Source of the DNA: Candidatus Iainarchaeum sp.
GTDB lineage: Archaea > Iainarchaeota > Iainarchaeia > Iainarchaeales > JAGVWC01
DNA length: 64,000 nt
Assembly (NCBI GenBank): GCA_018304465.1
Contig: JAGVWC010000008.1
Location: 96,001 to 160,000, forward strand
Reading direction: 5' to 3'
Under the pieces are notes generated by a model. It was not told the origin of the DNA. It did not search any database and was given only the letters and a program-made list of their open reading frames with translations. A program made the position numbers and the translations under genes. Shown piece by piece: positions 12,025-59,110 of the stretch (its first letter is position 1; each line of letters starts with the position of its first letter).

Positions 12025-12729
12025 TCATCCATCCGATTTTTTCAAAAACGGTTCCAGTTTTTTCCAGATCTCGACCCCGATTTCTTCTTTCGAACGGATC
12101 ACCCATTCTCCGTCCTCCAAAAAAGCGCAATCGATCCAAATCCAATTCGAATCCTCTTTCGCCAATCGTTTGTAAATCTCGAACGTCCGGTTCAAATACG
12201 CTTCATCGGACTCGTGAACGTCTTTTGTTTTTCCCTTGCGATACTCTTGTTTTCGGTCCGCGCCTTCCAGCATCGAACGGCTGGCCTTGGGCGGAAGATT
12301 CAAAAAAATCGTCTTGAACGGCTTTGGCAAACGCGACTCGACGCCTTTAACCCACTTGATAAAACCGTCTTGATCCGGCTTGGACAAATACTTTCCGCCT
12401 TGATGCGCGAAATTGGAGGCCGAAAAACGATCGCACACGACGTTGATTCCCAGATTCAATCGGCGCTCCAATTCAATCTTGAAATCATACCGATCCAGGG
12501 CATACAATAGCGCCACGAACTCGGGAGACAGCTCCTCTTTTGTCCCAAACTCGCCCGCCAGATACTGCCCCACCAGTCGACCAAAACGCTCGGTGTACCG
12601 CGGAAACCCCGAATGCTCCGCCACAAACCCTTTGCGCTGCAACCGGTCCAACAACAATTTTGATTGCGTGGCTTTTCCAGACCCGTCCGTTCCCTCAAAA
12701 ACAATCAATCGACCCGTCAAATCCATCAC
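12025..12729 (-). CDS. tmk: thymidylate kinase
   Basis: LIVFEGTDGSGKATQ, FPRY, VCDRF. Confidence 0.92.
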   Translation of the reverse strand: MMDLTGRLIVFEGTDGSGKATQSKLLLDRLQRKGFVAEHSGFPRYTERFGRLVGQYLAGEFGTKEELSPEFVALLYALDRYDFKIELERRLNLGINVVCDRFSASNFAHQGGKYLSKPDQDGFIKWVKGVESRLPKPFKTIFLNLPPKASRSMLEGADRKQEYRKGKTKDVHESDEAYLNRTFEIYKRLAKEDSNWIWIDCAFLEDGEWVIRSKEEIGVEIWKKLEPFLKKSDG

Positions 12730-24377: not shown

Positions 24378-24441
24378 GCGACCGACCAAGACCCTTTTTT
24401 TAATGCCTTCGGAGGCCAAAATCAGTACAAAAAGGATCTTT

Positions 24442-27400: not shown

Positions 27401-27600
27401 GCCGAATTCGCCGCATCGCCCGCGGAAGCGGCAACACCCAGGAAAACGTGCGCGAATTGCTCAAACAATACAAGCGAATGAAAAACGCGTTCAAACAACT
27501 CAAAGGACTCGACGAAAAAAAACTACAACAAGGAATGGACATGAAAAAACTGCAGGAAATGTTTTCCCCGAAAAAAAAGAAAAAACTCCGTTTCCGCTAA
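24442..27600 (+). CDS. srp54: SRP54 (Ffh) interrupted by an intein
   Basis: RALISADV, GLFGSGK/TTT, DTFRPAA, DSAGR, M-domain SMT.KE...SRIRRIARGSG. Confidence 0.96.
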   Translation: MGLGDQLRDAMEKLRKSTFSDRDEIKSIVKSMQRALISADVPVKLVLEVSKKIEDAAFSELAPGLNRREHVLKNAYDNLAEILGGQTKPPQNPKRILMVGLFGSGKCVHPLTIVPTANGCVETIQKIYEKNPETELTLEDGFVKELSNPIEVFSLNPLNLKMTRGTVSHIWKLKKDKSLYKVALDNGNNHAVIVTPEHPFFVLENAHIKKTKAEELTAGAFVATPRQLPLPEKQIPIKYLEQNLPQSFQVVCPELINEAKQFMIAKFHSLTNAFNILGEDYAYCTFTANLKRGILRFSTLKKLRNQGFEPNGTQEIKLKEFGTGARTIQVPNQLTTEMAEFMGYFFADGHMRKEYVEITNESNEILDRIEKIGMRLFQKKPCRKQDKRNANVKQILFCSGVLTKALNTVFGFPYFKKSDIIRIPPMILQATKENKYAFLQAYFDCDGYVSKNTRQIEFCTASPLFAEDLRILLTSLEMQPNYSKKKIKDKYYYRVCIKCKDVETFFQRVGSRIPFKQKRLAGMSEIGVGQTLGKNELLHVGQSIRDVRNQQGATIGDIQHHVGSYGIYEQEGLISRNSLKKFIEAITTKTKNKNNQILQNTIQPKKLNELSTAFQEPLGWVNANVFRLKELGFVTYSNGEVQTTELGKQLLEKNQKDEGLELKKLELLAHSDITWMKVKKIELVDNTEYVYDLTVDEYHNFVANQFIVHNTTTSGKLCHYYQKRGKKVGLIAADTFRPAAMEQLEQIAKKINATVILDKNETKPEKIIQQGLQREKEFDLLICDSAGRNALDSELEQEIKTINQTFKPDQAWLVLGADLGQIAGTQAKAFHDAVGVNGVIVTRMDGSAKGGGTLAACRQTNSPVYFIGTGEKTSDLEEFDAVRFLSRIMGYGDLQSLLEKAQEAAQDTDMGLEELLEHDYTLETFYKQLEATNKIGTMDKIMEMVGMKQQLPKEAAEQGQKKLEQFRFMMQSMTKKEKQNPDLINSSRIRRIARGSGNTQENVRELLKQYKRMKNAFKQLKGLDEKKLQQGMDMKKLQEMFSPKKKKKLRFR
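24760..26571 (+). mobile_element. intein (604 aa) with LAGLIDADG endonuclease in the SRP54 P-loop
   Basis: Starts CVHP, TPEHPF block B, GYFFADG and AYFDCDG, ends YDLTV...VHN/T. Confidence 0.95.
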
Positions 27601-31297: not shown

Positions 31298-32335
31298 ATG
31301 CCCGCACGCAAAATCCCCCAGCAAAAAGCCAATGCCCGGCTACGCAAAAAAATCCCAAAAAACTGGGACAGCCTGGATCCAAAGCATATTCCGGACAAAC
31401 GGCAAAGAGACAAACTCAAACGAATACTGCCCATTCCCGGCAAACTAAAGAAATTTCTGGCCAAGCGAAAAATACGGCCCTTTGCCCCCAAAGAACGCGG
31501 ATTCCGCTTACCCAACCAGGAAATCGGCCCCATCAAACGCGCGACCAACCGAATGCGTTTCATTTACGACCACTACTGGTCCACTTCAGCCGCCGAAATC
31601 GCACAACGCCAACGACTTCAAAAACAGATCCACCAAGGACACAGCCAATTCACGAACCTGACACGATGGGAAAAAAGACGCTTGAACGAATTACTCCAAC
31701 AACAAATCGCGGCAATCGGAAGAGAACGCGGACGCTTTCAAAACAAATACAAAGTCGTTGACGATCGGATCGATGACGAAGCCCTGCGACGACTGGACAT
31801 CCACCCGGATTATCCCGCGGTTCACTCCCGACGCGCGTACATGGAAAACCTTCGAGACGCGCTTCGAAAACCAGGACAACACGCCGTCGGACTCGTGGAC
31901 GTCGACAACTTGTCCCGTGTAAGCACTGAAATCGATCACGCCAAAGCCGGAAAAATCGTCGATATTTTGGCCGAAAGCCTCTCCGAAGTCCTAAAACCGC
32001 GCCGCGGATTTGCATGCGTGTACGGCGGGGACGAACTCTATATTTATCTTCCGCGAAACCTCCGAGAATCCGAACTGATCATGGACGTACGGTTTCGCGA
32101 AGCATTTGAGCGGAGAATAGAAAAATTCCCCGAACTAAAACGACTCGTCAAAAGAAACAACATTGATTTCACCGGCGTCGTCCAAGACTTTTCATCGGAC
32201 ACACCGCGCATCGGATTCCAACCGGACAGCGTTGTGGAAGGACTCAGCCGGCAAGTCAATCGCATCAAGAAAAAGAAAAAACGCAAAGGAATCGTCGTAA
32301 GCCTCAGCAGAAGCGGCCGCGAAGTCAATGTTTAA
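31298..32335 (+). CDS. basic N-terminal region fused to a divergent GGDEF-like domain
   Basis: SRRAYMENL...GLVDVDNL...H...ILAESL...YGGDELYIYLP. Confidence 0.75.
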   Translation: MPARKIPQQKANARLRKKIPKNWDSLDPKHIPDKRQRDKLKRILPIPGKLKKFLAKRKIRPFAPKERGFRLPNQEIGPIKRATNRMRFIYDHYWSTSAAEIAQRQRLQKQIHQGHSQFTNLTRWEKRRLNELLQQQIAAIGRERGRFQNKYKVVDDRIDDEALRRLDIHPDYPAVHSRRAYMENLRDALRKPGQHAVGLVDVDNLSRVSTEIDHAKAGKIVDILAESLSEVLKPRRGFACVYGGDELYIYLPRNLRESELIMDVRFREAFERRIEKFPELKRLVKRNNIDFTGVVQDFSSDTPRIGFQPDSVVEGLSRQVNRIKKKKKRKGIVVSLSRSGREVNV

Positions 32336-41641: not shown

Positions 41642-44600
41642 ATGACAATTAAGTTCGTGAAAAAGCGAGACGGCCGCGTAGTCGCCTTTAATCAAGACAC
41701 CATTACCAACGCGGTCTGGAAAGCCGCCAAAGCGGTTGGCGGAAAAGACAAATCACTGGCGGTCGAATTATCCAGAAAAGTCGTTCACGAACTCGAAAAA
41801 AAATTCCCCGAAAAACACGTTCCCACCGTGGAAGAAGTCCAGGACGCCGTTGAAAAAGTACTGATTGAACAAGGCCACGCGCGAACCGCGAAAGCCTACA
41901 TCATTTACCGCCAGCAACACGCCGAAATCCGGCGCGAAAAAGCCCTGGTGCTTGACAAACAAGAAACCGACGAAGTCGACAAACGATTCGACTTAAACGC
42001 GTTACGCGTCTTAAAAGCGCGTTACCTGCGCAAAGACGCCGCGGGAAAAACCATCGAAACCCCAAAAGAACTCTTCACCCGCGTCGCGGTACACGTACTG
42101 ATCCCCGAATTGCTCTACGATCCCCGCGTCTTTGACAAAGAAGCGACCCAAAAAACCCACCCCGTGGAGCCGTTTGACAACGTCGAAAACGAATACAAAT
42201 TATCCATTGGAAAATACCAACTCAACCAATACCATCTTGAAGCCCTAAAACGCGTGTACGATAAGTTTTCCCGCCAAGGCAAAATGAAAATGCCGTGGGG
42301 ACGATTCTTAGAAATGCTCAAAAACGGAGAATTCGACCAACACGAAACCAGCGGAGACGAATTCTACAGCCTCATGGTGTACAAAAAATTCATGCCCAAT
42401 ACCCCTGCGATCGCCAATTTCGGAGCGGTCCTTGGAATGGGCAGCGCCTGTTTTGTTATGGATGTCCGCGACAATATCGAAGGCATCATGGACACCCTCA
42501 AAAACGCCACCATCGTATTCAAATCCGGCGGCGGCGTCGGATACAATTTCTCGAAACTCCGACCCGAAGGCGATTTCGTTTCCACCACCACCGGCGCGGC
42601 CAGCGGCCCCATCTCGTTTATGGGACTGTTCGACAAAATGACCGAAGTCATCAAACAAGGCGGAATCCGCCGCGGCGCCAACATGGGAATTCTCAACTGC
42701 CTTGCAGGAGATACCGAGATTTCAACCATTGAAGGACGCAAAAAAATCAAAGAACTGGTTGGAACACAACCCCACCTGTACTGCCTAAATGATACCAATG
42801 AAGTGCGGATCCGGCAAGCGAACCGTGTCATCCACTCCGGCCAAAAAAAACTGGTTCGAATCACCTTCGACGACGATACCCGCATTGATTGCACGCCCGA
42901 TCATCGCATCATGCGCTCGAACGGCCAGTATACACACGCCCAAGACCTCCAGCCCCTTGACAGCGTCATGGCGTTCCATAAGAAAATACTCAACGACCGC
43001 TACTTTATCGGTTCCACTATGAGCCCACTTTCCCCCGAGCACGTCATCGCCACCGAAACCAACAGCAAAGTACTGATCGAGCAGACCGGCCAAACACGAT
43101 TGTCCAACGACCTGTGCGTCCACCACAAGGACAACAACCCCCTCAATAACCACCCGAATAACCTGCAAGTGCTTACCATTTCAGAACATGCCAAAATACA
43201 CTCCGATGTCCTGATCGAAAACCAAAAAAGAATCGCGATTTCACGGAAAGGAAAAACGATCGAACAGGTTTATGGCAGCGAAAAAGCGGATGCATGGAAA
43301 CAAAAAATGAGCCAAGCACGACGAAACAAAAAACCTTGGAACGCCGGCTCCGACACAGAAGTCTACAAAGCCCATTACAAAAACGGATTCAAGAACCAAT
43401 ACGAATACGCCAACGCCAACCACAAAGTGGTCAAAGTCGAACCACTGGAGGGCATTCACGACATCTACGACATTATCATGGACGATTACCACAACTTCGT
43501 CGCGAACGGCGTCTTTGTCCACAACTCAAACCACCCGGACATCGAAAAATTCATCACCGCCAAAGAAGGCAACAAACAACTCACCAACTTCAATATCTCC
43601 GTGCTCATGATGCCGGACTTCTGGGAATACTACAACAAAAACGAACCCTACCCCCTGATCAATCCCCGCGACGGAGAAGTCGTCCGAACCGTGAACCCCC
43701 GCATGCTCTTTGACATGATTGTCTACCAAGCATGGGAAAGCGCGGAACCCGGCGTGATCTTCTACGACAAAGTCAACGAATACAACCCGTTCTACGAACA
43801 CCTCGGACCCATTGTGACCACGAATCCCTGCGTGACTGGAGACACGCGCGTATCCACCGCAAAAGGATTGGAACGCATCGACCAACTTGCACCCGGCCTA
43901 ATTACTGTGGATTCGCGTGTAAACGCGCTTTCAAACAAAAGCGGCTCGAAATCGCTCCAACTTGGAACCCAGCAAGGAACCGCAATTCAGGTCATTAAAA
44001 CTGGAACCAAACCCGTGTTCCGAGTGGAAACCACCAGTGGATTTGAAATCAAAGCAACAGCAGATCACAAGATACTGACCCCCCACGGATGGAAAGCAGT
44101 TGAGCAACTGACCGCTGGAAACGAAATACTGATCCAAAGCGGGGCAGGAAAATTCAATTCAGATTCCGCATTACCTTTTATTGTGGAAAATACCCCCGTC
44201 GGAAAAAACGGAAAAAAGTACCGGAATAACCTTCCCGCAAAATGGAGCTACGATCTCGGCCTCGTTATGGGCTGGATGCTCGGCGACGGATGGCTCAATG
44301 ATCAAGCGAACCAAGTGGGGCTCGTATTTTCAAAACCGGACTATGAAGCAAAAGAACAGCTCAAACCTATTTTTGAGCATTATTGTAACCGATCCATAAA
44401 GCTCACCAACAGAGATCAAAGTGCAGTTCAGATCCGAAGCAACAGCAAGTATGTTACAGAGTACTTCTTCAAACTCGGACTCACTTCCGTCGATAAGGAA
44501 AAAGAAGTTCCAAGCACGATTTACACCGCAACCGAAGAGGCAGTCAGAGGATTCCTCAAAGGATTATTTTCTTCGGATGGAACTATTGCGCACCAAAAAG

Positions 44601-46243
44601 AGAGCAGAAACTATGTACGACTAAATTCCAGTTCACTTACATTACTCAAAGGAGCGCAACGATTGCTTCTCAATCTTGGAATCAAAAGTACGATTTATGA
44701 TCGCTCAACCGAACCAAAAACATTCAAATACATCACGGCAAAAAACCAAACTAAGCAATATCAAACCAGTGGCGAAAATTATGAGCTAAATATCAGCAAA
44801 GAAAATTTGCCACGCTTTTTAGACAAAATCGGTTTCATTCAAAGCCGACACACCCAGACGGCAGCAAAAATACAACAACACGAATTTTACACTGAATATT
44901 TTGTTGAAAAAATAAAAACCATCGAGGCTGCCGGCATCGAAGATGTCTACGATCTTACGGAACCGACCACCCATTCATTTATCGGAAACGGAATACTGCT
45001 ACATAATTGCGGCGAAGTATTGTTGTATCCGAACGAAAGCTGTAACCTTGGAAGCGTCAATGTCTGGACGTTTTTCAAAGAAGACGAAGACGGAACCCAA
45101 TACTTTGACTGGGATGACCTCAAAAAAACCGTGCAAACCGCAAGCAAGTTTCTCGACAACGTCATTGACGTGAACAAGTTTCCATTAAAAGCCATCGAAG
45201 ACATGACCGACGCCACGCGCAAAATCGGACTCGGAGTCATGGGCGTCGCCGACTTGTTTTACGAACTCAAACTCCCCTACAATTCCCCCGAAGCGCGCGA
45301 TGCCGCCGAAAAACTCATGGAATTCATCAACTACCACAGCAAAGCCGTTTCCATTGACCTGGCCAAAACCCGCGGACCCATGCCCTACAACGACAAAAGC
45401 TTTTACCTCGAAGGCCGGCTCGCGATTTCAGGACCCGAAACCAAAGAAAAACTCCACTTCAACTGGGACGACATCCGCGAAGGATACAAAAAATTCGGTT
45501 CCCGCAACGGCTACAACACCGTCATCGCGCCCACCGGAAGCATCTCCATGATCGCGGGCTGCAGCTCCGGAATCGAACCCGTGTACTCACTCGTATTCGA
45601 AAAAAACGTCAAAGTCGGAAGCTTCTACTACGTCGACCCCGTCTTTGAACGCATCATGAAACAAGAAGGACTCCACGACAGCAAACTCATGGAAGACGTA
45701 TCCGAAAACGGCGGAAGCATCCAACACATCCCGTATTTGACCAACGAACAAAAACACGTTTTCGTCACTGCCATGGACATCACCCCTGAAGACCACATCC
45801 GAATGCTCGCCGCGTTCCAACGCTGGTGCGACTCCAGCATTTCGAAAACCAACAACTTTCCGGCCGACGCGACCGTCGAAGACATGCGCGCCAGTTACCT
45901 GCTCGCATACCAATTGGGATGCAAAGACGTTACGGTTTTCCGCGACAGCTCCATCAAAGCCCAAGTGCTGAACGCACCCAAGAAAAAAACCGTGGACACG
46001 AGCTCGCTCAAACTCGAGGCCAGCAAAGCCCAAACCATGCAAGCGATTTCGCCTTCACCTGCCCCCATAACCCAAACCGCCAAACCCGCGGAAACAAAAC
46101 AAGTCACGGGCCGAAGCACTTCGACAGTCCAGCAACCCAAAAGCAAATACGAAATCACGAACTGCCCCAACTGCAACTCCGTGACCCAAATCAAAGAAGG
46201 CTGCGTCAACTGCCCCGAATGCGGCTGGGGAATGTGCAACTAA
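41642..46243 (+). CDS. nrdJ: class II (B12) ribonucleotide reductase with ATP cone and two inteins
   Basis: VKKRDG ATP cone, PNTP...SACF, RRGANM, NP/CGE, APTGSIS, C-terminal CxxC pairs. Confidence 0.96.
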   Translation: MTIKFVKKRDGRVVAFNQDTITNAVWKAAKAVGGKDKSLAVELSRKVVHELEKKFPEKHVPTVEEVQDAVEKVLIEQGHARTAKAYIIYRQQHAEIRREKALVLDKQETDEVDKRFDLNALRVLKARYLRKDAAGKTIETPKELFTRVAVHVLIPELLYDPRVFDKEATQKTHPVEPFDNVENEYKLSIGKYQLNQYHLEALKRVYDKFSRQGKMKMPWGRFLEMLKNGEFDQHETSGDEFYSLMVYKKFMPNTPAIANFGAVLGMGSACFVMDVRDNIEGIMDTLKNATIVFKSGGGVGYNFSKLRPEGDFVSTTTGAASGPISFMGLFDKMTEVIKQGGIRRGANMGILNCLAGDTEISTIEGRKKIKELVGTQPHLYCLNDTNEVRIRQANRVIHSGQKKLVRITFDDDTRIDCTPDHRIMRSNGQYTHAQDLQPLDSVMAFHKKILNDRYFIGSTMSPLSPEHVIATETNSKVLIEQTGQTRLSNDLCVHHKDNNPLNNHPNNLQVLTISEHAKIHSDVLIENQKRIAISRKGKTIEQVYGSEKADAWKQKMSQARRNKKPWNAGSDTEVYKAHYKNGFKNQYEYANANHKVVKVEPLEGIHDIYDIIMDDYHNFVANGVFVHNSNHPDIEKFITAKEGNKQLTNFNISVLMMPDFWEYYNKNEPYPLINPRDGEVVRTVNPRMLFDMIVYQAWESAEPGVIFYDKVNEYNPFYEHLGPIVTTNPCVTGDTRVSTAKGLERIDQLAPGLITVDSRVNALSNKSGSKSLQLGTQQGTAIQVIKTGTKPVFRVETTSGFEIKATADHKILTPHGWKAVEQLTAGNEILIQSGAGKFNSDSALPFIVENTPVGKNGKKYRNNLPAKWSYDLGLVMGWMLGDGWLNDQANQVGLVFSKPDYEAKEQLKPIFEHYCNRSIKLTNRDQSAVQIRSNSKYVTEYFFKLGLTSVDKEKEVPSTIYTATEEAVRGFLKGLFSSDGTIAHQKESRNYVRLNSSSLTLLKGAQRLLLNLGIKSTIYDRSTEPKTFKYITAKNQTKQYQTSGENYELNISKENLPRFLDKIGFIQSRHTQTAAKIQQHEFYTEYFVEKIKTIEAAGIEDVYDLTEPTTHSFIGNGILLHNCGEVLLYPNESCNLGSVNVWTFFKEDEDGTQYFDWDDLKKTVQTASKFLDNVIDVNKFPLKAIEDMTDATRKIGLGVMGVADLFYELKLPYNSPEARDAAEKLMEFINYHSKAVSIDLAKTRGPMPYNDKSFYLEGRLAISGPETKEKLHFNWDDIREGYKKFGSRNGYNTVIAPTGSISMIAGCSSGIEPVYSLVFEKNVKVGSFYYVDPVFERIMKQEGLHDSKLMEDVSENGGSIQHIPYLTNEQKHVFVTAMDITPEDHIRMLAAFQRWCDSSISKTNNFPADATVEDMRASYLLAYQLGCKDVTVFRDSSIKAQVLNAPKKKTVDTSSLKLEASKAQTMQAISPSPAPITQTAKPAETKQVTGRSTSTVQQPKSKYEITNCPNCNSVTQIKEGCVNCPECGWGMCN
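42698..43525 (+). mobile_element. intein (276 aa) with HNH endonuclease
   Basis: CLAGDT...TPDH...VHHKDNNPLNNHPNNL..L..SEH...VHN/S. Confidence 0.93.
43829..45007 (+). mobile_element. intein (393 aa) with LAGLIDADG endonuclease next to the RNR radical Cys
   Basis: NP/CVTGDT...TADH...GWMLGDG...GLFSSDG...LHN/CGE. Confidence 0.95.
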
Positions 46244-46937: not shown

Positions 46938-47206
46938 GGGCCAGGTGAGGGGGCTAGCGGTCCCCTGTACCCGAAATCCGCTTCATGCGGGAACCCACGC
47001 TGTCAAAACGTGAATTGGGCTTGTACCAAAGCCATTGTTTGGACGACGACCCTTTGTCCTAAAAGGTCGATGGCAATTGCCAACCCGCCAGGTTCGGAAG
47101 AAAGCAACGGTACCAATCGTCTTCGATGCTTTTAGACCGCAGAGGCGAGGAAAAACAATGGACTAAACTTTGGGACAAAACCAGTGCGCTATTTGGCAGC
47201 GGCCCA
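46938..47206 (+). ncRNA. ffs: archaeal SRP RNA (7S)
   Basis: Terminal GGGCC/GGCCC helix, Alu-like UGUAC, helix 8 CCGCCAGG-TTC-GGAA-GAA-AGCAACGG. Confidence 0.88.
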
Positions 47207-47214
47207 CTTGAAAA

Positions 47215-47958
47215 TTAATCCGAAGACAACGAAAACGCGGAATCAAACGCGTCCAGCAGCACCCGATTTTTCCGCAACACGTTCCGCGTGGCCGTCAAAA
47301 GCAATCGAAGCTCCCGCGAAGACGTAGCCAAGCGCCGCACGTTTCGAACCAATAGCGACGCGCGTTCTTTTGGAGACACGGGAATAATCGTTCCATCCGA
47401 AGTCAAATTCACGATTTCGTCCAAATTCAACGGAATCACTCGGCTTTTTTCGCGGACAAAACGCGAGATAAAACTCGGACTTGGAATAAAACCCGCGGCC
47501 GCCACTTTTGCCAATTCAACTGCCGCGTCTTTTCGCGCAGCCGCAGACGGAAGGTCCTCAAGCCGAGTCTGAATCACTTTGGTTCTTTTTTCGGTGGAAC
47601 CAAACAACTGCGAAACCAACACCCATTGATCTTTTTTGGAACCCGCGGAAAGCCGTGTCATCCCCATTTTTGGAATCCGGACCTTTGCATCCATTAAACG
47701 GTTGATCACGTTTTGATACGAACGCGCATGAGCATGTGAAAGCGGAGTCGAAAACACCTGGATCGCGACCCGTTTCATCACACGTTTTCGATCAGGATGT
47801 TTTGGCGTAGCGGCAGGCGAATGCGGCGCTCCCTCGAACATGGCACGCCCCGCATACACGCGTCCGCGAAGCCCGGATCCGAGCAAAGCCGGCGAACCCG
47901 AAGAAGCGGAGGTAATCCACACCCGGTTGGCATGCTTAAAAAAAAACTTTCGAGGCAT
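47215..47958 (-). CDS. basic orphan with protein-kinase-like fold (probable pseudokinase)
   Basis: LGSGLRGRVY Gly-loop, KRVAIQVF, WVLVSQLF, PLNLD. Confidence 0.65.
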   Translation of the reverse strand: MPRKFFFKHANRVWITSASSGSPALLGSGLRGRVYAGRAMFEGAPHSPAATPKHPDRKRVMKRVAIQVFSTPLSHAHARSYQNVINRLMDAKVRIPKMGMTRLSAGSKKDQWVLVSQLFGSTEKRTKVIQTRLEDLPSAAARKDAAVELAKVAAAGFIPSPSFISRFVREKSRVIPLNLDEIVNLTSDGTIIPVSPKERASLLVRNVRRLATSSRELRLLLTATRNVLRKNRVLLDAFDSAFSLSSD

Positions 47959-48015
47959 ACGACCGTAGGTTTTCAAGACAGTACAAATTTAAATAAACGT
48001 GCGTTATCTTGTTGC

Positions 48016-48435
48016 ATGCCACGACCCGGAAGCCTTCGAAAACCCATCGAGCTCCTCAAAAAACAAGCCAAGAAAAAAGAAGCCGAGTGGAACAAAGCCA
48101 AAACCGATCGGACAAACGCCCAGCAACAGGTGCGAAAAACCGAATCGCATATTCGCTACGCATTCAACTACGAACCTGTTCCGATCCTGAATCCCGACCG
48201 ACGCGACGAAAGCGTGCTCGACTTTCAAGCCGCGCGAAAAAAAGAACAAAAAACAATCCGCGCGGAACAATCCACCGAAACCAAAGCGCGTCACGCCGAA
48301 TATATGGTGTTAGACGCCCAAAAACTTCGAAGCAGCGTCGTCGGAAAAGCTGTCCGGATCATCACCGGCGGAGAAAAACTCTGGAGCCGAACGCGAAAAA
48401 TTAAAACGAAAAGGAAAAAAAACACCCGTTCGTAA
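48016..48435 (+). CDS. basic orphan protein
   Basis: MPRPGSLRKPIELLKKQAKKK...; TTTAAATA about 25 nt upstream. Confidence 0.65.
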   Translation: MPRPGSLRKPIELLKKQAKKKEAEWNKAKTDRTNAQQQVRKTESHIRYAFNYEPVPILNPDRRDESVLDFQAARKKEQKTIRAEQSTETKARHAEYMVLDAQKLRSSVVGKAVRIITGGEKLWSRTRKIKTKRKKNTRS

Positions 48436-48436
48436 C

Positions 48437-49126
48437 TTAGCGTTTTGTACCCACCGTAAAACCATTGGCCAATTCTAACATTACCGTTTTAGGATCTGCC
48501 ACGGGCACAACAGCAGCTGCCAAAAAAACCCCTTTTGTTCCGAGTGCAAGCGATGCACGGGTATCTTCCGAAGAAGCAACTCCCGCACCCATAATCGGGA
48601 TCACCGAGTCATTCACAGAAAAAATCGCTTTAACGGACCTAGCCACTAAATCCGGATCCACACGCGAAATCGATTTTAATGTTCCGATCAGTTCCGGAAG
48701 TTCAATTGCTAAAAAATCAGGCGAAAATTCCGCAATTGAACGCGCACGCGAATCGTTTTCTGCGCACGCCAAAACCTCAAGACCGATGCCGTGCGATCGT
48801 TCAATCACCGCACGAACCACTTCATCTGAAACCGGATCCTCCGCGTGATTAACCACCACTCCCGCAGCACCGGCTTCTTTTAGCGCTTCAGGCAAAATTT
48901 TTCCGTTTCCTTTTCCAAATGAAACCGGATCCACGTGCTGAGAAAAAACCGGGACCGAAACCGAAGACGCCACCAACCGCACGTCCACCGGAGAAACCAC
49001 CGGAACAATTGACACCCCGGTCTTTTTGGCCACTTCCTGGCACAATTTCGCCAATGTTAGCGCATTTTTTCCAAACCCTTGCTGATAAACCTTAAAATTC
49101 ACAAACAAAACCGGCAATTCCACCAC
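48437..49126 (-). CDS. tpiA: triosephosphate isomerase (archaeal type)
   Basis: VNFK, QHVD, NHAE, IELPELIG, GAGV; GGTGA-GATC-GTG start. Confidence 0.93.
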   Translation of the reverse strand: MVELPVLFVNFKVYQQGFGKNALTLAKLCQEVAKKTGVSIVPVVSPVDVRLVASSVSVPVFSQHVDPVSFGKGNGKILPEALKEAGAAGVVVNHAEDPVSDEVVRAVIERSHGIGLEVLACAENDSRARSIAEFSPDFLAIELPELIGTLKSISRVDPDLVARSVKAIFSVNDSVIPIMGAGVASSEDTRASLALGTKGVFLAAAVVPVADPKTVMLELANGFTVGTKR

Positions 49127-49191
49127 GATCTCACCCCAAAAAATAGGGAAAAACACTATTTAAGGGTTTTTGGAACCACTACATTAATACC

Positions 49192-51039
49192 ATGCAATAC
49201 GCCCACCAAACCGGGGAAGACCTCTTAGAAAAAGTCCGCAACAGCCATTTTTCGTCGGAAATACCGCTGATTCGAAAAGCGCTTGAAAAAAACAAACCTC
49301 TTCCCGAACACACCCGAACGCTTGCCATCGACACGGCAAGCACGTTGACCCAATTTGGATTCGGAAAAACGGCCGTCTGCGCGGCACTGCTTCAATTCCA
49401 CGATCTTGAAACCCTCAAAGGCGAATTCGAATCCGAAATACTGGAACTGGCCCACGGACTGCAAAAAATCGAGCGCGTGAAAGCCAAGAACCGGGGAAAA
49501 CTATCCCCGGAATCACTGCAAAAAATCATTCTGGCCTTGTCACCGGATCCCCAAATCATCATCATCTGGATCTGCAAAAAACTCGTGGAACTGAGGTTTT
49601 TGTCCGAACAACCCAAAGACGAACAACTTCCGCTGGCCGAAGACGTGCTCAATCAATGGGTCCCCGTTATTCACAAACTCGGGCTGCACAAAATCCGGTG
49701 GGAAATCGAAGATCTGGCCATGAAAAAAATCCTGCCCAAAGAATACAAAGCCATCAAAGAATACCTCAACGACAAGCGAAACACGCGACAAGAAAAAATG
49801 CGCGAACTCGTCGAAAAACTCCGATCCGCGCTACAAAAAGCCCAACTTGAAGCTGTGGTATTCGGACGCGTCAAAAACTTTTACCGCATTTACAAAAAAA
49901 TGAACGAACAAAAACGAAACCTGAAAGACATCCACGATTTGATCGGCGCGCGCGTCATCTGCAACAGCGTAAACGAGTGCTACGAAACACTTGCCGTGAT
50001 CCAGAACTCCTTCAAACTCGAAACCCAAGGATTCGATGATTACATCCAAAAACCCAAAAAAACAAAGTACCAATCCATTCACGTCGACCTGGACTGGAAA
50101 GGAATACCATCCGAAATACAGATTCGAACCTGGGAGATGCACAAAGAAGCCGAAGAAGGCGTCGCCGCGCACTGGGAATACAAACAATACAAAAAAGACC
50201 CGACGTTTGACCGGCACTTAACGATTGCCAAACAACTGGCGGAATGGTTCGACCAAGTACACCACAAAAGCATCATGGACTCGCTGAACCTAAAATTCGA
50301 AAAAAACAAAATCTTCGTTTTAACCCCAAAAAGCGAACTCGTGGAGCTGCCCGAAAAAGCCACCCCCGTCGATTTTGCGTTTGCCGTGCACACAGAACTC
50401 GGATACAAATGCGAAAAAGCCCGCGTGAACGGAAAAATCGTCCCGCTCGATTACCAACTCCAAAACGCGGACAGCGTCGAAATCATCACCAGCGAAAAGC
50501 AAATTCCAAAACAACACTGGTTAACGTTTGTTCAAACCGAAAAAGCGAAACAAAAAATCCGAACCAAACTGAACATCGTTCCGACAAAACCCGAAAAAGA
50601 AAAAAAAACCGGAATCGTAAAAGCGACGTTCCGGAAAAACGCGCAGTTCCTTCCCGCCAAATGCTGCTCGCCGATTCCGGGCGATGAAATCGTCGGGCAC
50701 AAAACCACGAAACGAAAAATAAAAATCCACCGGATCGACTGCCCCAATGCCCAGCGGATACCCGAAGACGAGCGACTGACACTATCCAACGCATCGTTCA
50801 CTCAAAAAGAATTCGAAACCACGCTGCGAATCAACGTGCACAACCAGCCGGGAGTACTCTCCGAAATACTGGACGCCATCGGCAAACACGATACCAAAAT
50901 CATTTCCACCGAAGCCGTTACGCACGCGCACTCAATCACATGCCGATTCCGCATCAAAACAAAAAACAGGAAAACCTTCGAGCAAACCGCCGAACGCGTA
51001 CAGAAAATCAAAGGGATTATCGACGTACAACGCGGATGA
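49192..51039 (+). CDS. long RelA/SpoT homologue (degenerate HD, SYNTH, TGS, ZFD, ACT)
   Basis: GRVK..Y.IYKKM, DLIGAR, FDDYI..PK...YQSIH, EIQIRT, AAHWEYK, TPVDFAFAVHT, CCSPIPGD, HRIDC. Confidence 0.92.
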   Translation: MQYAHQTGEDLLEKVRNSHFSSEIPLIRKALEKNKPLPEHTRTLAIDTASTLTQFGFGKTAVCAALLQFHDLETLKGEFESEILELAHGLQKIERVKAKNRGKLSPESLQKIILALSPDPQIIIIWICKKLVELRFLSEQPKDEQLPLAEDVLNQWVPVIHKLGLHKIRWEIEDLAMKKILPKEYKAIKEYLNDKRNTRQEKMRELVEKLRSALQKAQLEAVVFGRVKNFYRIYKKMNEQKRNLKDIHDLIGARVICNSVNECYETLAVIQNSFKLETQGFDDYIQKPKKTKYQSIHVDLDWKGIPSEIQIRTWEMHKEAEEGVAAHWEYKQYKKDPTFDRHLTIAKQLAEWFDQVHHKSIMDSLNLKFEKNKIFVLTPKSELVELPEKATPVDFAFAVHTELGYKCEKARVNGKIVPLDYQLQNADSVEIITSEKQIPKQHWLTFVQTEKAKQKIRTKLNIVPTKPEKEKKTGIVKATFRKNAQFLPAKCCSPIPGDEIVGHKTTKRKIKIHRIDCPNAQRIPEDERLTLSNASFTQKEFETTLRINVHNQPGVLSEILDAIGKHDTKIISTEAVTHAHSITCRFRIKTKNRKTFEQTAERVQKIKGIIDVQRG

Positions 51040-51598
51040 CTCGCGGCGACGAAACCAATCGAAGAACCTCGTTGACGCTTTGTTCCACCGTCTGGTTCGA
51101 AGTGTCGATTTCGACGTCGCACAATTCCCGAAAATCCGAAACCATCGAATCGAAAAAACGCCGGTTCACGAGCAAACGTTTTTCGTCCCGAGTCAAATGA
51201 GAACGCATCTTGAGGCGTTTTTTAACGGTTTTGTAATCCGCATACAAATGAATCGAAAGCGTCGGTTTTTCGAGGGAAATGTTCTCCAGAATCCGCAAAA
51301 CACCCGGCATTTTCCGCTCGTACGCATCCACGACCAAAGTCGGGAAAAACCGGTCGCAAATAATGTTTTTCTTTCCGCGTTTTTTCACGCGGGCGGACGT
51401 ATCCACCACCGCTTCCAGATAAAAAACCAGGTTCAAAAACCCGTTGTCATCCCGAAGCGACATCGAACGACGCTGCTTCAATTCCGCGGACGGAGTAGAC
51501 ACATAAGACCAGCCTTTGAGCGCGGAAATCTTTCGCGCAACGGTTGTTTTTCCGACGCCATCGACGCCTTCCAAAACAAAAAAAGAGCTTTTGCGCAT
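51017..51598 (-). CDS. second dTMP-kinase-like NMP kinase
   Basis: LEGVDGVGKTT, ICDRF, IDTS. Confidence 0.75.
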   Translation of the reverse strand: MRKSSFFVLEGVDGVGKTTVARKISALKGWSYVSTPSAELKQRRSMSLRDDNGFLNLVFYLEAVVDTSARVKKRGKKNIICDRFFPTLVVDAYERKMPGVLRILENISLEKPTLSIHLYADYKTVKKRLKMRSHLTRDEKRLLVNRRFFDSMVSDFRELCDVEIDTSNQTVEQSVNEVLRLVSSPRVIRVVRR

Positions 51599-51681
51599 AT
51601 ACAAGTACAATCATATTCCAATAAAATCATTTCTGTTGGCCAATGGAAAAGGTTAATAAAACAATAAACAATAAACCTACG

Positions 51682-52437
51682 ATGATTCCGCTTGAAATAA
51701 AACGCATCAAAACAGGCATCACCGGTCTTGACGACTTGATGGAAGGCGGATTTCCGCAAGGACGCAGCGTACTCGTATCCGGCGCATGCGGAACCGGAAA
51801 AACCATTTTTTGCCTGCAGTTCCTATACAGCGGCGCCAGAAAATTCAACGAACCAGGAATTTACGTTACGCTGGATGAACGACCCGATCTGATCCGCGAA
51901 GACATGCTGCGCTTCGGATGGGATCTCCACGAACTCGAAGAAAAAAACCTTTTACAGATCATCGACGGAAGCATCGCCAAAATCGGAATTCCTTCCGAAG
52001 AAATCTTTTCCCTGCCCGTCACCGGATTTGATTTGGACAAACTCCTGCTTGAAATCATGCGGGTATCCAAGCGCATCAACGCCAAACGCGTCGTTATCGA
52101 CTCCATTCCGGCACTTGGATTCAACTATGAAAATGAAAACGAAATCCGAAAAGCGATTCTCAAACTATCCTACATGCTCACCCGCGCCGGCGTCACAAGC
52201 CTCATGACCAGCGAAATCGACGAAGCAAGCAACCGGTTCGGGAAATACGGCGTCGAAGAATACGTCGTTGACGGCGTACTGGTGCTTCATTACATGGGCG
52301 TCGGAACACAAGCCAACCGAACGCTTCACATCCGAAAAATGCGCGCGACCGCGCACAGCGAAGATCTTCACCCCATGGTTATCAGCAAAGAAGGCGTATC
52401 CGTTCACTCGATCGACGACGAATACAAACAAACCTGA
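51682..52437 (+). CDS. single-domain KaiC/RAD55-like ATPase
   Basis: TGITGLD...GGFP, GACGTGKT, VIDSI, EEYVVDG, IRKMR. Confidence 0.92.
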   Translation: MIPLEIKRIKTGITGLDDLMEGGFPQGRSVLVSGACGTGKTIFCLQFLYSGARKFNEPGIYVTLDERPDLIREDMLRFGWDLHELEEKNLLQIIDGSIAKIGIPSEEIFSLPVTGFDLDKLLLEIMRVSKRINAKRVVIDSIPALGFNYENENEIRKAILKLSYMLTRAGVTSLMTSEIDEASNRFGKYGVEEYVVDGVLVLHYMGVGTQANRTLHIRKMRATAHSEDLHPMVISKEGVSVHSIDDEYKQT

Positions 52438-52447
52438 TTTTCGATTA

Positions 52448-52600
52448 ATGAAAAAAAACCAACTGCCGCGCACCCAAAAATTCGACGTCATCGTACGCGG
52501 CGAAGACCTGATTACACGCCTTAATCGCGGAGGATACTCGGTAAAAACCCAGTCTTACGGAGACTACCGAATGCTACCGACCGCCAAAAACAACGCATAA
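52448..52600 (+). CDS. possible small protein (50 aa)
   Basis: ATG ORF filling the gap; no motif. Confidence 0.3.
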   Translation: MKKNQLPRTQKFDVIVRGEDLITRLNRGGYSVKTQSYGDYRMLPTAKNNA

Positions 52601-52659
52601 ACCCTTAGTTGAGAGGCTGGGATTTAAAATCGTTCTTGCGCCCAATTTTAACGGTAAAA

Positions 52660-54153
52660 ATGCCCGAAAAAAACGATTTGGTTGAAAGCAAACTAGGTCA
52701 TTTGAAAACGCTGCGGGAAAACGGAATCAACCCCTATCCGTATCACTTCGAAGCTAACGCCACGTCTCAACAGCTTCACCAGAAATACGAATCCTTGGCC
52801 GCAGCCGAAGAAACCCAAGAAACCACTTGCATCAGCGGCAGAATCAAAATCATCCGAAGCTTCGGAAAACTCGTTTTTCTTGACGTATGGGACCACACCG
52901 GAAAAATACAAGTACAAGCCAAAGAAGACGAAACCGACAAAGAAAGCCTTTTTATCGTTGAAAACCTTGATCCCGGCGACTGGATCGGAATCGAAGGACG
53001 CATCATCAAAACCAAACGCGGAGAACTCACGGTGCTCGCCAAAAAATTCACGGTCTTATCCAAAAGCATCCAGCCGCTTCCCGAAAAATGGCACGGCCTC
53101 ACCGACACCGAAACGCGCTATCGACAACGACACCTCGACCTGATCATGAACCCCGAAGTCAAACGCGTATTCGAAAAACGCAGCCAAATCATCAAAACCG
53201 TCCGCGAATACCTGGACCAACATGGATTCGTCGAAGTCGAAATCCCGTCGCTCCAACCGGTTTACGGAGGCGCGAACGCCAAACCATTCAAAACGCTTTC
53301 CAACGCCCTCAAACAAGAGTTATACCTCTCGATCTCGCCGGAACTCTACCTCAAACGCCTCATCGTCGGGGGATTCGACAAAGTGTATTTTTTGGGCAAG
53401 AGTTTTCGCAACGAAGACATCGACAAAACCCATAACCCCGAATTCACGATCATGGAATGTTACGCGGCCAATTGGGATTACAACGACATGATGAAATTGT
53501 TCGAGGACATGTACAATTACGTGGCCAAAAAAGTGACGGGAACCACCCAAATCGAATACGACGGAACCATCGTCGATCTCAAAGCACCTTGGCGACGACT
53601 TCCCGTGAAACAAGGCCTCAAAGAATACGCCAACATCGACGTTGACAAACTCAAAGACGCGGAACTGATCAAACTCGTCAAACACCATGCACCCGATTAC
53701 GACGGTCCCCAAATCAGAGGACTACTCATCGCCGAATTATTCGAAGCCCTCGTCGAAGAAAAACTTGGAAAACAACCCGTGTTCATCACGGACTACCCTG
53801 CCGAAACTACGCCGCTATGCAAAGCCCATCGCGACAATCCCGAACTGATCGAACGATTCGAACCGCTTGTCAACGGATGGGAAGCGGGCAACGCATACAG
53901 CGAACTCAACGACCCCGTGCTCCAGCGAAAACTGCTTGAACAACAAGCCTCGGAAGGACGCGCCGGCGGAACCGCCGAACCCGTCGACGAAGACTTCATC
54001 AACGCCATCGAATACGGAATGCCCCCAACCGGCGGACTCGGCGTCGGAATCGACCGCATGGTCATGCTGTTGACCGGACAATCCACCATCAAAGACGTCG
54101 TGCTCTGGCCGCTGATGAAAAACAAGGAAGAAAAAAAGCCAGAAACGAAATAA
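52660..54153 (+). CDS. lysS: lysyl-tRNA synthetase, class II
   Basis: OB fold, LPEKWHGL..RYRQR, FRNE...HNPEF, NAYSELNDP, GMPPTGG.G.GIDR. Confidence 0.97.
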   Translation: MPEKNDLVESKLGHLKTLRENGINPYPYHFEANATSQQLHQKYESLAAAEETQETTCISGRIKIIRSFGKLVFLDVWDHTGKIQVQAKEDETDKESLFIVENLDPGDWIGIEGRIIKTKRGELTVLAKKFTVLSKSIQPLPEKWHGLTDTETRYRQRHLDLIMNPEVKRVFEKRSQIIKTVREYLDQHGFVEVEIPSLQPVYGGANAKPFKTLSNALKQELYLSISPELYLKRLIVGGFDKVYFLGKSFRNEDIDKTHNPEFTIMECYAANWDYNDMMKLFEDMYNYVAKKVTGTTQIEYDGTIVDLKAPWRRLPVKQGLKEYANIDVDKLKDAELIKLVKHHAPDYDGPQIRGLLIAELFEALVEEKLGKQPVFITDYPAETTPLCKAHRDNPELIERFEPLVNGWEAGNAYSELNDPVLQRKLLEQQASEGRAGGTAEPVDEDFINAIEYGMPPTGGLGVGIDRMVMLLTGQSTIKDVVLWPLMKNKEEKKPETK

Positions 54154-54168
54154 CGGACAAAACGACCG

Positions 54169-54909
54169 CTAGTTCTTTGCAATCGTCCACAAAAAATGAA
54201 AATACTGCGTAAACGAATCCGCCACCGCCTGGCTTTCGATCAAAATCGCGAACGGGTCCTCGTTCAACAGCAAAATCACGGTGACGTTACCCGAAACATC
54301 CACCATCATCGGATTGCGGTACGCATCCGGCAAAAACCGAATCTCGCAGTTTTTCTTAAACCCGATGTCTTTTCTTCCCCGCGCAAACTCGTAATAAATC
54401 ATTTTTACGGGAATGTCATGCGATTCAACATGCTGTCGGATCCATTTGAAATCAGACCCCATGACTTCCCGCGTGCGACCCGAACTGCCCAACCCGAAAA
54501 CCGGCAGGTTTAACGAAAACAATTTGTCCATCGCGGCTTTCACCCCGCGGCGACCCTTGAAAAAAAACACGCCTTGGTTTTGTTTCAGGTTCGAAAACAA
54601 TTCGCTCAATTCCGGATACGCCTGCTGCAAGCGACGCTTTGAAAGCAGCAAGTCGGATTCGCGCCGGTCCATAATGTCGATTAATTCTTTTGGAGACGCC
54701 GCTTCGAACACTTTCGTTTTCGCGCGTACTACGGAGCCCACTAAGCCTTTTTCCGAAAGACGGCCCAGCACGTCGTACACCAACACACGATGCAAACCCG
54801 AATCCGACACGATCCGGCTTGCCTCCGAGGGCCCAAGCTTAAGCAGGGAAAAATATACCTTGGCCTCGTTTCGGGTCAAACCACAGGATTCCAAAACCGC
54901 CAAATCCAT
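54169..54909 (-). CDS. TrmB family transcriptional regulator
   Basis: GLT.NEAKVY..LL, VYDVL.RL..KGLV, F..YF.FLW. Confidence 0.9.
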   Translation of the reverse strand: MDLAVLESCGLTRNEAKVYFSLLKLGPSEASRIVSDSGLHRVLVYDVLGRLSEKGLVGSVVRAKTKVFEAASPKELIDIMDRRESDLLLSKRRLQQAYPELSELFSNLKQNQGVFFFKGRRGVKAAMDKLFSLNLPVFGLGSSGRTREVMGSDFKWIRQHVESHDIPVKMIYYEFARGRKDIGFKKNCEIRFLPDAYRNPMMVDVSGNVTVILLLNEDPFAILIESQAVADSFTQYFHFLWTIAKN

Positions 54910-58327: not shown

Positions 58328-59110
58328 TTAAAAGCGTTGAGTCCTAAGACTCAGTTTTTCCGCAGTTTTGGCTAAACGCCACTGTTTGACAGGGTGCAAA
58401 AATAAGTGATTTTCCGCCAAAAAAACAATATCAGAAAAACGTTCCACTTGAATATACGCCGAAACGTTATTTGGATCCAAATAAGGACCGTTCATTTTCA
58501 GTCCGAAAGCCGATTCGAAAAGACTTTTCACTTCACGAATAAACGGGATACATTTCATTCGAATTTTGACGCGAGGGGCAGATTTAAATCCACCTTCTAC
58601 GGCACGTGTGTCTCCCTCCGCGTCAAATAAACCCCGCAAAAACCACCGTTGTAATTCCACTGGAGCGTTCCAGACCACAGCAGGGGCATGTAATGAATTC
58701 GTCTTTGAACCGCACGGAAGTTCAAAAAGAACAGTCAAAAATAAATACACCCGCTTACTTGTCGGGTTGATGTACAGCGTTCGTTCCCCTTTACTTAAAC
58801 GCTCATAGCGAATAGGGGGACAATCGCCAAACAAATCAGAATACAACGATTGAATAAACATCATCTGAGACTCAAATTCGTCCGCGATGATCATCTTGTA
58901 CTCCCGACGGCGGGAAACCAAATATGAACGCTCGACATTCTTTAATCCACCGTCACCGAAGAAATAACCAGCAAAATACGCGAGTTTTGGCGAAAGCTCC
59001 GTTGGGCAGTTTGCAAATTCATGACTTGGTAAAGAATCAATCGGACTTGCGGGACAGAAAGGATCAACCAATTCGGATTCCGAAATAAAGCCATAAGCTG
59101 TTCGAAGCAT
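58328..59110 (-). mobile_element. free-standing LAGLIDADG homing-endonuclease-like gene
   Basis: AYFAGYFFGDGG and FLRGLFDAEGD motifs; no intein splicing blocks. Confidence 0.85.

Follow-up and report, generated by a model that had tools for sequence, protein, structure and literature searches.

A probable synthetase-only RelA/SpoT homologue and its putative hydrolase partner in a small-genome DPANN archaeon

We analysed a 64,000-nucleotide stretch of DNA from Candidatus Iainarchaeum sp. (assembly GCA_018304465.1, contig JAGVWC010000008.1, positions 96,001 to 160,000), referred to here as the window, and in it the gene for a long RelA/SpoT homologue (RSH), which we call RSH-A. RSH-A is probably a monofunctional long-RSH synthetase of the alarmone (p)ppGpp, native to a small-genome DPANN archaeon and forming the alarmone-making half of a two-gene system in which a second long RSH of the same genome, RSH-B, would be the remover. 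We read the two genes in this way because the erosion of their catalytic residues is reciprocal, with RSH-A keeping the synthetase site and RSH-B keeping the hydrolase (HD) site. Domain content, the states of the catalytic residues, the residence of RSH-A in an archaeal genome, and the patterns in which the two types co-occur and are conserved are direct observations on the genomes and alignments described below.

The RSH-A open reading frame (ORF) is uninterrupted, starts with ATG and encodes 615 amino acids. Along the window, the gene and its domains are arranged as follows.

49192..51039, + strand: RSH-A, a complete long RelA/SpoT homologue, predicted to be synthetase-only ([hS]) from the ORF and its Pfam and NCBIfam domains
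49306..49686, + strand: degenerate HD domain (putative pseudo-hydrolase), residues 39-165, weak HD_4 match of 47.1 bits (cut-off 27.2)
49864..50193, + strand: synthetase (SYNTH) domain, residues 225-334, RelA_SpoT match of 124.5 bits (cut-off 27), with an acidic GFDD at 280-283
50311..50490, + strand: TGS domain, residues 374-433, TGS match of 67.8 bits (above cut-off), with His400 equivalent to E. coli RelA H432
50491..50643, + strand: remnant of the helical (AH) domain and flexible linker, residues 434-484, from the spacing between TGS and zinc finger and from the AlphaFold2 model
50644..50754, + strand: zinc-finger (ZFD), or ribosome-intersubunit (RIS), domain, residues 485-521, with the motif CCxP...H...C
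50803..51033, + strand: C-terminal ACT/RRM domain, residues 538-614, ACT_4 match of 50.5 bits (above cut-off)

The order of HD_4 followed by RelA_SpoT, both over their Pfam cut-offs, places RSH-A among the long RSHs, and its best sequence matches in the PDB are Rel/RelA chains, with E values from 6.7e-93 (8fr8) to 1.8e-82 (E. coli RelA, 5iqr). An AlphaFold2 model built from a 73-row alignment reached a mean pLDDT of 85.7 and a pTM of 0.79, and its top Foldseek matches are ribosome-bound RelA (5iqr), B. subtilis Rel (6yxa) and full-length SpoT (7qpr). In the model, the ACT domain has a beta-alpha-beta-beta-alpha-beta fold. An initial annotation made from the window's sequence had called the protein full-length and RelA-like; it is indeed a complete long RSH of 615 residues, but "full-length" says too much, as its AH domain is about 80-90 residues shorter than that of bacterial forms. 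PF19296, the model for the AH and RIS region, gives only a partial match of 18.3 bits against a cut-off of 23.8.

To compare active sites, we aligned 77 long RSHs: 31 A-type proteins (RSH-A included), 16 B-type proteins (the RSH-B type), 2 C-type, 9 D-type and 17 bacterial-type proteins, and E. coli RelA and SpoT. Eighteen sites, 10 in the synthetase and 8 in the HD domain, were scored against a bacterial Rel reference, with the B. subtilis Rel numbering (D264, E324) taken from the 6yxa alignment and the partial rows L035, L037, L038, L049, L051 and L058 left out of the motif counts. All 10 synthetase residues of RSH-A are those of the reference, including the equivalents of D264 and E324, and R226, K228, K236, D249, R254, Y293, H297, E308, Q310 and R312 are invariant across the 73-row alignment. 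Eight synthetase sites are kept in 31/31 A-type rows and the other two in 30/31. The intact synthetase motifs noted in the initial annotation thus stand, its xFDD motif being the GFDD at 280-283. The conserved synthetase Tyr, which we take to stack on the guanine, is also kept in RSH-A. A D264G variant of B. subtilis Rel is described as inactive in synthesis (passage in PMC7797070).

The HD site is different, as only the His-Asp pair of the "HD" motif itself (H70, D71) aligns with the Rel reference out of the eight residues scored. The Glu-Asp dyad is absent, falling inside an alignment gap, and DRLHN has K, V and E in place of its D, H and N. Both stretches that had been singled out as eroded are found where expected, AALLQFHD at residues 64-71 and WICKKLVELR, in place of KLADRLHNMR, at 126-135. 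The loss is general among A-type rows, where each dyad residue is kept in 3/31, the DRLHN Asp in 7/31 and the DRLHN His in 1/31. E. coli RelA shows HD erosion of the same kind in the same alignment, and the relevant passage of the 2011 RSH survey describes its HD domain as present but inactive (PMC3153485). The HD region of the RSH-A model is confidently helical, with block pLDDT values of 83-97. Because eroded motifs occur together with a confident helical model and with fold matches to RelA, Rel and SpoT, we regard the HD domain of RSH-A as a folded pseudo-hydrolase that is predicted to be catalytically dead.

The partner was found by a whole-genome profile scan with PF04607 (RelA_SpoT) and PF13328 (HD_4) of the 1.246-Mb genome (15 contigs, 91.9% complete, 0.41% contamination). 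Each profile matches the same two genes only, RSH-A and the following gene.

G000:C7:6907-8598 (= L002:778-2469): RSH-B, second long RSH of the same genome, on contig C7, 563 amino acids

The Pfam matches of RSH-B are HD_4 (137.9 bits), HD (36.7), TGS (49.1), RelA_SpoT at only 48.6 bits, and ACT at about 18 bits, the last below cut-off. RSH-B keeps 8/8 HD residues, and the B-type rows as a group keep each HD site in 16/16, with one site in 15/16. In its synthetase, the GRxK Arg is replaced by Phe, the xVRI Arg by Cys, and Glu-x-Gln-x-Arg by Lys-x-Tyr-x-Gly. Among the 16 B-type rows, the catalytic Glu and the Gln are kept in none, the GRxK Arg in one and the xVRI Arg in none. There is no zinc finger, and an Arg occupies the TGS His position. 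RSH-B is thus predicted to be a hydrolase-only long RSH and the mirror image of RSH-A, [Hs] against [hS] in Atkinson's notation. The initial annotation had argued that RSH-A would need a separate hydrolase, and RSH-B, with its intact HD and degenerate synthetase, agrees with this. The small alarmone hydrolase that it suggested searching for was not found, nor was a small synthetase, using PF13328 and PF04607 on the 91.9% complete assembly; a long hydrolase-only RSH is there instead.

Mean within-group identities differ by domain. In the A-type, HD is the lowest of the catalytic domains at 0.27, against 0.49 for SYNTH, 0.56 for TGS and 0.57 for ZFD; in the B-type the values are 0.46 for HD, 0.39 for SYNTH and 0.40 for TGS, with ZFD absent. 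This pattern fits a relaxed constraint on the presumed dead half of each type. As for the surroundings of RSH-B, a gene for ArgRS lies directly upstream on the same strand, with a 78-nt gap, and HisG lies downstream in this genome; an ArgRS homologue is upstream of the B-type gene in 14/17 loci of relatives.

Within the A/B pair, the elements for sensing tRNA and the ribosome are retained in the synthetase paralogue only. The TGS counterpart of E. coli RelA H432, a His, occurs in 31/31 A-type, 2/2 C-type and 9/9 D-type rows and in all 19 bacterial rows, and in 0/16 B-type rows. In E. coli RelA, H432 is reported to stack against the 3′ CCA end of an uncharged tRNA in the A site, and the change H432E to abolish activation by deacylated tRNA (passage in PMC7797070). 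The CCxP...H...C zinc-finger motif has a similar distribution, being found in all A-type (31/31), D-type and bacterial rows and in no B-type (0/16) or C-type row. The TGS, Cys-containing zinc-finger and ACT domains listed in the initial annotation are therefore all present, by Pfam (TGS, ACT_4) and by C491, C492, H513 and C517, which are invariant in the 73-row alignment. The zinc-finger loop (residues 505-509 of RSH-A) reads TTKRK, or nearly so, in most A-type rows, whereas bacterial-type rows have (R/K)GRG and D-type rows a K(D/E)G-type sequence there. The more basic loop of the A-type may be an adaptation for contact with rRNA.

In the A-type, the AH domain is about 80-90 residues shorter than in bacterial forms. 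Between the TGS motif and the zinc finger there is a median of 83 residues in the A-type (range 76-94; RSH-A, 83) and of 92 in the D-type, against 172 in bacterial-type rows (range 124-213). In the RSH-A model, what is left of the region is one helix at 450-460 followed by a linker at 468-482 that is disordered, with pLDDT below 50. In structures of ribosome-bound bacterial RelA, the AH domain lies along the A/R-tRNA.

From these features we infer the enzyme activities of RSH-A and RSH-B, their product, their dependence on ribosome and tRNA, and their downstream targets. The synthetase of RSH-A would transfer pyrophosphate from ATP to GDP or GTP, with a preference for GDP predicted from its acidic GFDD under the EXDD/RXKD rule cited in PMC3153485. 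Its TGS, zinc-finger and ACT domains would most likely dock it onto the ribosome, where they would sense the uncharged CCA end of the A-site tRNA, as in bacterial RelA/Rel, and amino-acid starvation would turn alarmone synthesis by RSH-A on. RSH-B, with an intact Mn-type HD site and neither the tRNA-sensing His nor the zinc finger, would degrade the alarmone. RSH-A would be adapted to an archaeal ribosome, and the retained TGS His, zinc finger and ACT domain are consistent with this. Control by ribosome and tRNA predicts that the sensors are selectively retained in the synthetase paralogue alone, which is the pattern seen. Given the truncated AH domain, this activation is nevertheless the most uncertain step of the proposed mechanism.

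RSH-A is native to this small archaeal genome, because its neighbours are archaeal, its composition is typical, unbroken contigs span it and its neighbourhood is conserved. The archaeal host supposed in the initial annotation is borne out by the genes across the 64-kb window, which include RadA, a PcrB-family GGGP synthase, aTrm56, TFE-alpha, RPA-type OB proteins and TrmB. Two genes flank RSH-A.

48437..49156, - strand: triosephosphate isomerase (TIM), divergent from RSH-A, Pfam TIM
51643..52437, + strand: KaiC-like ATPase, downstream of RSH-A, Pfam PF06745 (258 bits)

At the A-type loci of 33 relatives, compared over flanks of only about 0.6-1.5 kb, a KaiC-like homologue (31-81% identical) adjoins the gene in 21 and TIM in 13. 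RSH-A has a GC content of 0.478 against 0.495 ± 0.024, and a GC content at third codon positions (GC3) of 0.576 against 0.564 ± 0.060, for 39 window genes; its codon-usage distance of 0.201 lies inside the 0.133-0.256 range of the other window genes longer than 1.2 kb. The earlier impression that the gene resembles core genes in composition was therefore correct. Two Logan contigs from public runs, of 24,274 bases (covering 47000-54200) and 9,303 bases (47082-54200), span RSH-A together with its two neighbours and match the window with zero differences at an even depth of about 10; the runs may be the source samples, so that this serves as a check on the assembly and carries no independent biology. 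A short join and loose ends in the same comparison stem from matches of about 20 letters to other contigs. Chimerism of the assembly, which the initial annotation had named as a risk, is not seen, given the longer contig, the conserved flanks and the typical composition.

We surveyed the order with RSH-A as query in 41 genomes, the window's own included, and typed the ORFs at the loci by phmmer and motifs. The query matches 38 genomes, in two of which there are only weak TGS matches to other proteins. A-type genes are present in 34/41 genomes (three partial), B-type genes in 19/41 (one partial, at a contig end) and C-type genes in 2/41, and no long RSH was found in five genomes, of 76-94% completeness. 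Every B-type holder also has an A-type gene (19/19). The C-type proteins (L056 and L057, in genomes G036 and G005 of family f3) are about 460 amino acids long, with an eroded HD, an intact synthetase, a TGS with its His, and neither zinc finger nor ACT, and no HD_4 match was found in these two genomes. Across the phylum, a RelA_SpoT match is present in 162/215 genomes, and a hand count gives 91 genomes with two or more matches, the second of which is not always B-type. The initial annotation had held long RSHs not to be a standard archaeal feature; this is true of Archaea generally, where they are rare, but within this phylum they are standard. The closest named homologue of RSH-A, 56% identical, is labelled Candidatus Diapherotrites archaeon, and further homologues bear the label Micrarchaeota or Woesearchaeota archaeon; such labels, given by others, are a lead to the phylum.

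Three quick maximum-likelihood trees (77 rows under LG+G4, 77 rows under LG+C20 with posterior mean site frequencies, and 91 rows under LG+G4) agree in their main branches, with the proviso that eroded domains distort branch lengths and that only some "bacterial" and "D" rows are named by organism, the rest being classed by architecture. All of them recover a B-type clade (SH-aLRT 100), a D-type clade (99-100) and an A+C group apart from all else (99). C-type sequences arise within the A-type clade and have a very long branch. A single branch (85-97) separates the bacterial-type rows from the others, the B-type adjoins the bacterial stem (79-92) and the D-type lies between B and A; the A-type clade is separate from all 33 bacterial-type rows. 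Approximately unbiased (AU) tests on 40 rows and 632 columns, run under the simple LG+G4 model with short searches, reject a clade of the A-type with E. coli RelA (delta lnL 51, p-AU 0.010). Because that clade is rejected, the split into synthetase and hydrolase appears to be convergent, and the trees indicate that the RelA-like state of the A-type arose independently of proteobacterial RelA. Joining the B-type to E. coli SpoT is not rejected at the 5% level (delta lnL 31, p-AU 0.064), and neither is a single clade of A, B and D (delta lnL 3.7, p-AU 0.486), so that the sequences are compatible with a single archaeal origin of the A, B and D genes. No donor lineage can be named, as the closest named representatives of 700 or more amino acids come from unrelated bacteria (Fimadaptatus, Chitinispirillaceae/Fibrobacterota, Cetobacterium).

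Several results weigh against a dedicated make-and-break pair under ribosomal control. The pair is not obligatory, because the B-type gene is missing from 15/34 A-type holders, including a one-contig genome that is 99% complete and a two-contig genome that is 97% complete. An HD_4 family search of A-only genomes (for example G017 and G018, loci L021 and L025) found nothing beyond the A-type pseudo-HD, and such genomes would have to remove the alarmone otherwise. The AU test also rejects an exclusive A+B clade (delta lnL 38, p-AU 0.022), which leaves a recent duplication into A and B within the phylum unsupported; the B-type may have a separate or an older origin. With respect to the protein itself, NCBIfam TIGR00691 (spoT_relA) scores 442.7 bits on RSH-A, short of its 499.2 cut-off, which fits the degenerate HD and the missing AH. 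With AH reduced to one helix and a disordered linker, RSH-A might be unable to dock in the bacterial manner. The metal-binding and catalytic functions assigned here to the scored HD residues follow the RelSeq structure. Finally, all 11 public runs that hold the RSH-A stretch are DNA, and none is RNA.

Some of these results bear on other explanations. RSH-A could be an active synthetase controlled off the ribosome, by an ACT ligand, autoinhibition or expression level, with RSH-B setting the alarmone level. The spacing of 83 against a median of 172, the predicted disorder at 468-482, the PF19296 score below cut-off and the archaeal ribosome of the host, on which no RelA-type factor is known to act, all speak for such control, but the tRNA-CCA-sensing His is in every A-type row and in no B-type row, the zinc finger follows the same pattern, and TGS (0.56) and the zinc finger (0.57) are the best-conserved parts of the A-type; we consider off-ribosome control unlikely. 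Less likely still, in our judgement, is a departure from the predicted activity, in which RSH-A is still bifunctional through a non-canonical hydrolase site, is a pseudoenzyme, or makes another nucleotide such as (p)ppApp, and we regard this as very improbable. The H70-D71 pair does remain, the HD domain is confidently folded and product specificity is unreadable from these data. Against bifunctionality, however, stand the deleted Glu-Asp dyad, the replaced Asp, His and Asn of DRLHN and an erosion like that of the inactive E. coli RelA HD, while a pseudoenzyme is at odds with the intact state of all the synthetase residues checked and the retained equivalent of the guanine-stacking Tyr.

Contamination by a bacterial sequence, or a chimeric assembly in an archaeal bin, is the least probable explanation and in our view barely credible, even though the family is overwhelmingly bacterial and bacterial Rel proteins reach 33-40% identity to RSH-A; among the genome contigs scanned with RSH-A, one bacterial match was listed, in Desulfovibrionaceae at 36% identity. 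The gene lies in mid-contig, flanked on either side by archaeal genes across the 64 kb, contigs from two runs (perhaps the source samples) span it without differences, and its composition is typical; orthologues occur in 34/41 genomes of the order, often beside the same neighbours, and form a clade of their own. We rejected contamination and chimerism on the archaeal neighbours, the synteny in relatives, the spanning contigs and the composition. A synthetase-only RSH-A paired with a hydrolase-only RSH-B remains the reading that we prefer.

The pair resembles known systems in part. Like E. coli RelA, an [hS] protein of gamma- and beta-proteobacteria, RSH-A has a folded and presumably dead HD, a predicted active synthetase with an acidic motif of the xFDD/EXDD type, the His432 equivalent in TGS, the CC...H...C motif and an ACT/RRM domain. 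Unlike RelA, of which it is no orthologue, it has 615 rather than 744 residues, has lost most of AH and resides in an archaeon; membership in the RelA subfamily fails both on the rejected clade and on the RelA equivalog model NF008124 (300.1 bits against a cut-off of 728). RSH-B, like E. coli SpoT and the SpoT of 7qpr, which we take to be hydrolase-only, would be an HD-active long RSH that partners a synthetase-only paralogue. It differs in having 563 residues, no zinc finger, AH or TGS His, and Lys for the synthetase Glu; in E. coli SpoT, by contrast, every synthetase residue checked is retained. Bifunctional Rel proteins ([HS], such as B. subtilis Rel, 6yxa) share the domain order and include the closest sequences outside the archaeal clades, at 33-40% identity, but hold both sites in one protein, whereas here there are two genes with one site eroded in each. 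The D-type, which comprises shorter long RSHs of other DPANN lineages (one from a Candidatus Woesearchaeota archaeon), has a short AH like the A-type and neighbours its clade in all trees, but unlike the A-type it keeps both active sites in 9/9 rows, except for one HD site kept in 7/9.

Other features of the window concern RSH-A less directly. A weak candidate promoter element was read by eye upstream of the gene.

49157..49164, + strand: TATTTAAG, TATA-box-like element, about 30 nt upstream of the RSH-A ATG

As a weak match, TATTTAAG would fit a leaderless or short-leader archaeal transcript of RSH-A. The KaiC-like ATPase next to RSH-A is much more strongly conserved than RSH-A itself, at up to 81% identity against at most 45% in the same relatives. 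Between these two genes lies a divergent thymidylate-kinase-like P-loop gene (51017-51610, - strand; PF02223, 34.6 bits), convergent with RSH-A and overlapping its 3′ end by 23 nt; no homologue was found in the loci of relatives at E <= 1e-5, and a second, better-matching thymidylate kinase lies at 12025-12729. The window also contains an SRP54 gene with an intein bearing a LAGLIDADG endonuclease domain (24403-27600, + strand), a ribonucleotide reductase gene with two Intein_splicing stretches and a LAGLIDADG domain (41642-46243, + strand), and a free-standing LAGLIDADG-like ORF near tRNA-Lys (58328-59110). A 345-amino-acid protein encoded at 31298-32335 (+ strand) has a weak GGDEF match (PF00990, E 3.2e-6, 27.4 bits) and may represent another nucleotide-messenger enzyme of bacterial type in this archaeon.

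That the RelA/SpoT family occurs in DPANN archaea is already known. In the relevant passages of Li et al. 2021, RelA/SpoT is reported in 69.0% of Diapherotrites, 41.7% of Woesearchaeota, 21.3% of Pacearchaeota and 19.0% of Nanoarchaeota, with a predicted acquisition from bacteria (PMC8407392). This is the same gene family, and those passages treat its presence only, with no domain or active-site analysis and no mention of two specialised paralogues. The corresponding passages of earlier and later papers describe long RSHs as lacking in archaea (2011 survey, PMC3153485), find no (p)ppGpp in the archaeal models Haloferax and Sulfolobus and hold the alarmone to be unimportant in archaea (PMC8646023, PMC10249747), and state in a 2023 review that (p)ppGpp had not been described in archaea (PMC10249747). 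Our full-text literature search returned no [hS]/[Hs] pair, active-site states or shortened architecture in archaea; Fig. S34 and the supplements of PMC8407392 and the supplementary tables of the 2019 RSH survey preprint (10.1101/575399) lay outside that search and could bear on this. New here is the mirror-image pair of a synthetase-only and a hydrolase-only long RSH, as typed by their residues, in one archaeal genome.

A broader proposal, to which we would give slightly less than an even chance, is that a whole phylum of small-genome DPANN archaea has a ribosome-triggered stringent response, in which a remodelled RelA-like factor of bacterial ancestry, with a short AH and a more basic TTKRK zinc-finger loop, would dock on an archaeal ribosome, sense the uncharged CCA end of the A-site tRNA and make (p)ppGpp, and a dedicated, sensor-less long-RSH hydrolase would reset the signal. 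If true, the proposal would give Archaea their first alarmone-based stringent control. Rel has also split into specialised paralogues in plants, and the archaeal case would then be the third independent division into synthetase-only and hydrolase-only paralogues, after those of proteobacteria and plants. It has long been asked if a (p)ppGpp stringent response exists in Archaea, and what we add to the question is a putative make-and-break pair of long RSHs, at home in an archaeal genome and widespread across its phylum. RSH-A and RSH-B are concrete proteins with which to ask if a bacterial-type stringent factor works on an archaeal ribosome, and the pair is a natural experiment in how Rel splits into specialised halves and how much of AH can go. 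Taken together, these genes suggest that this archaeal group runs a starvation-alarm system that has been thought essentially bacterial.

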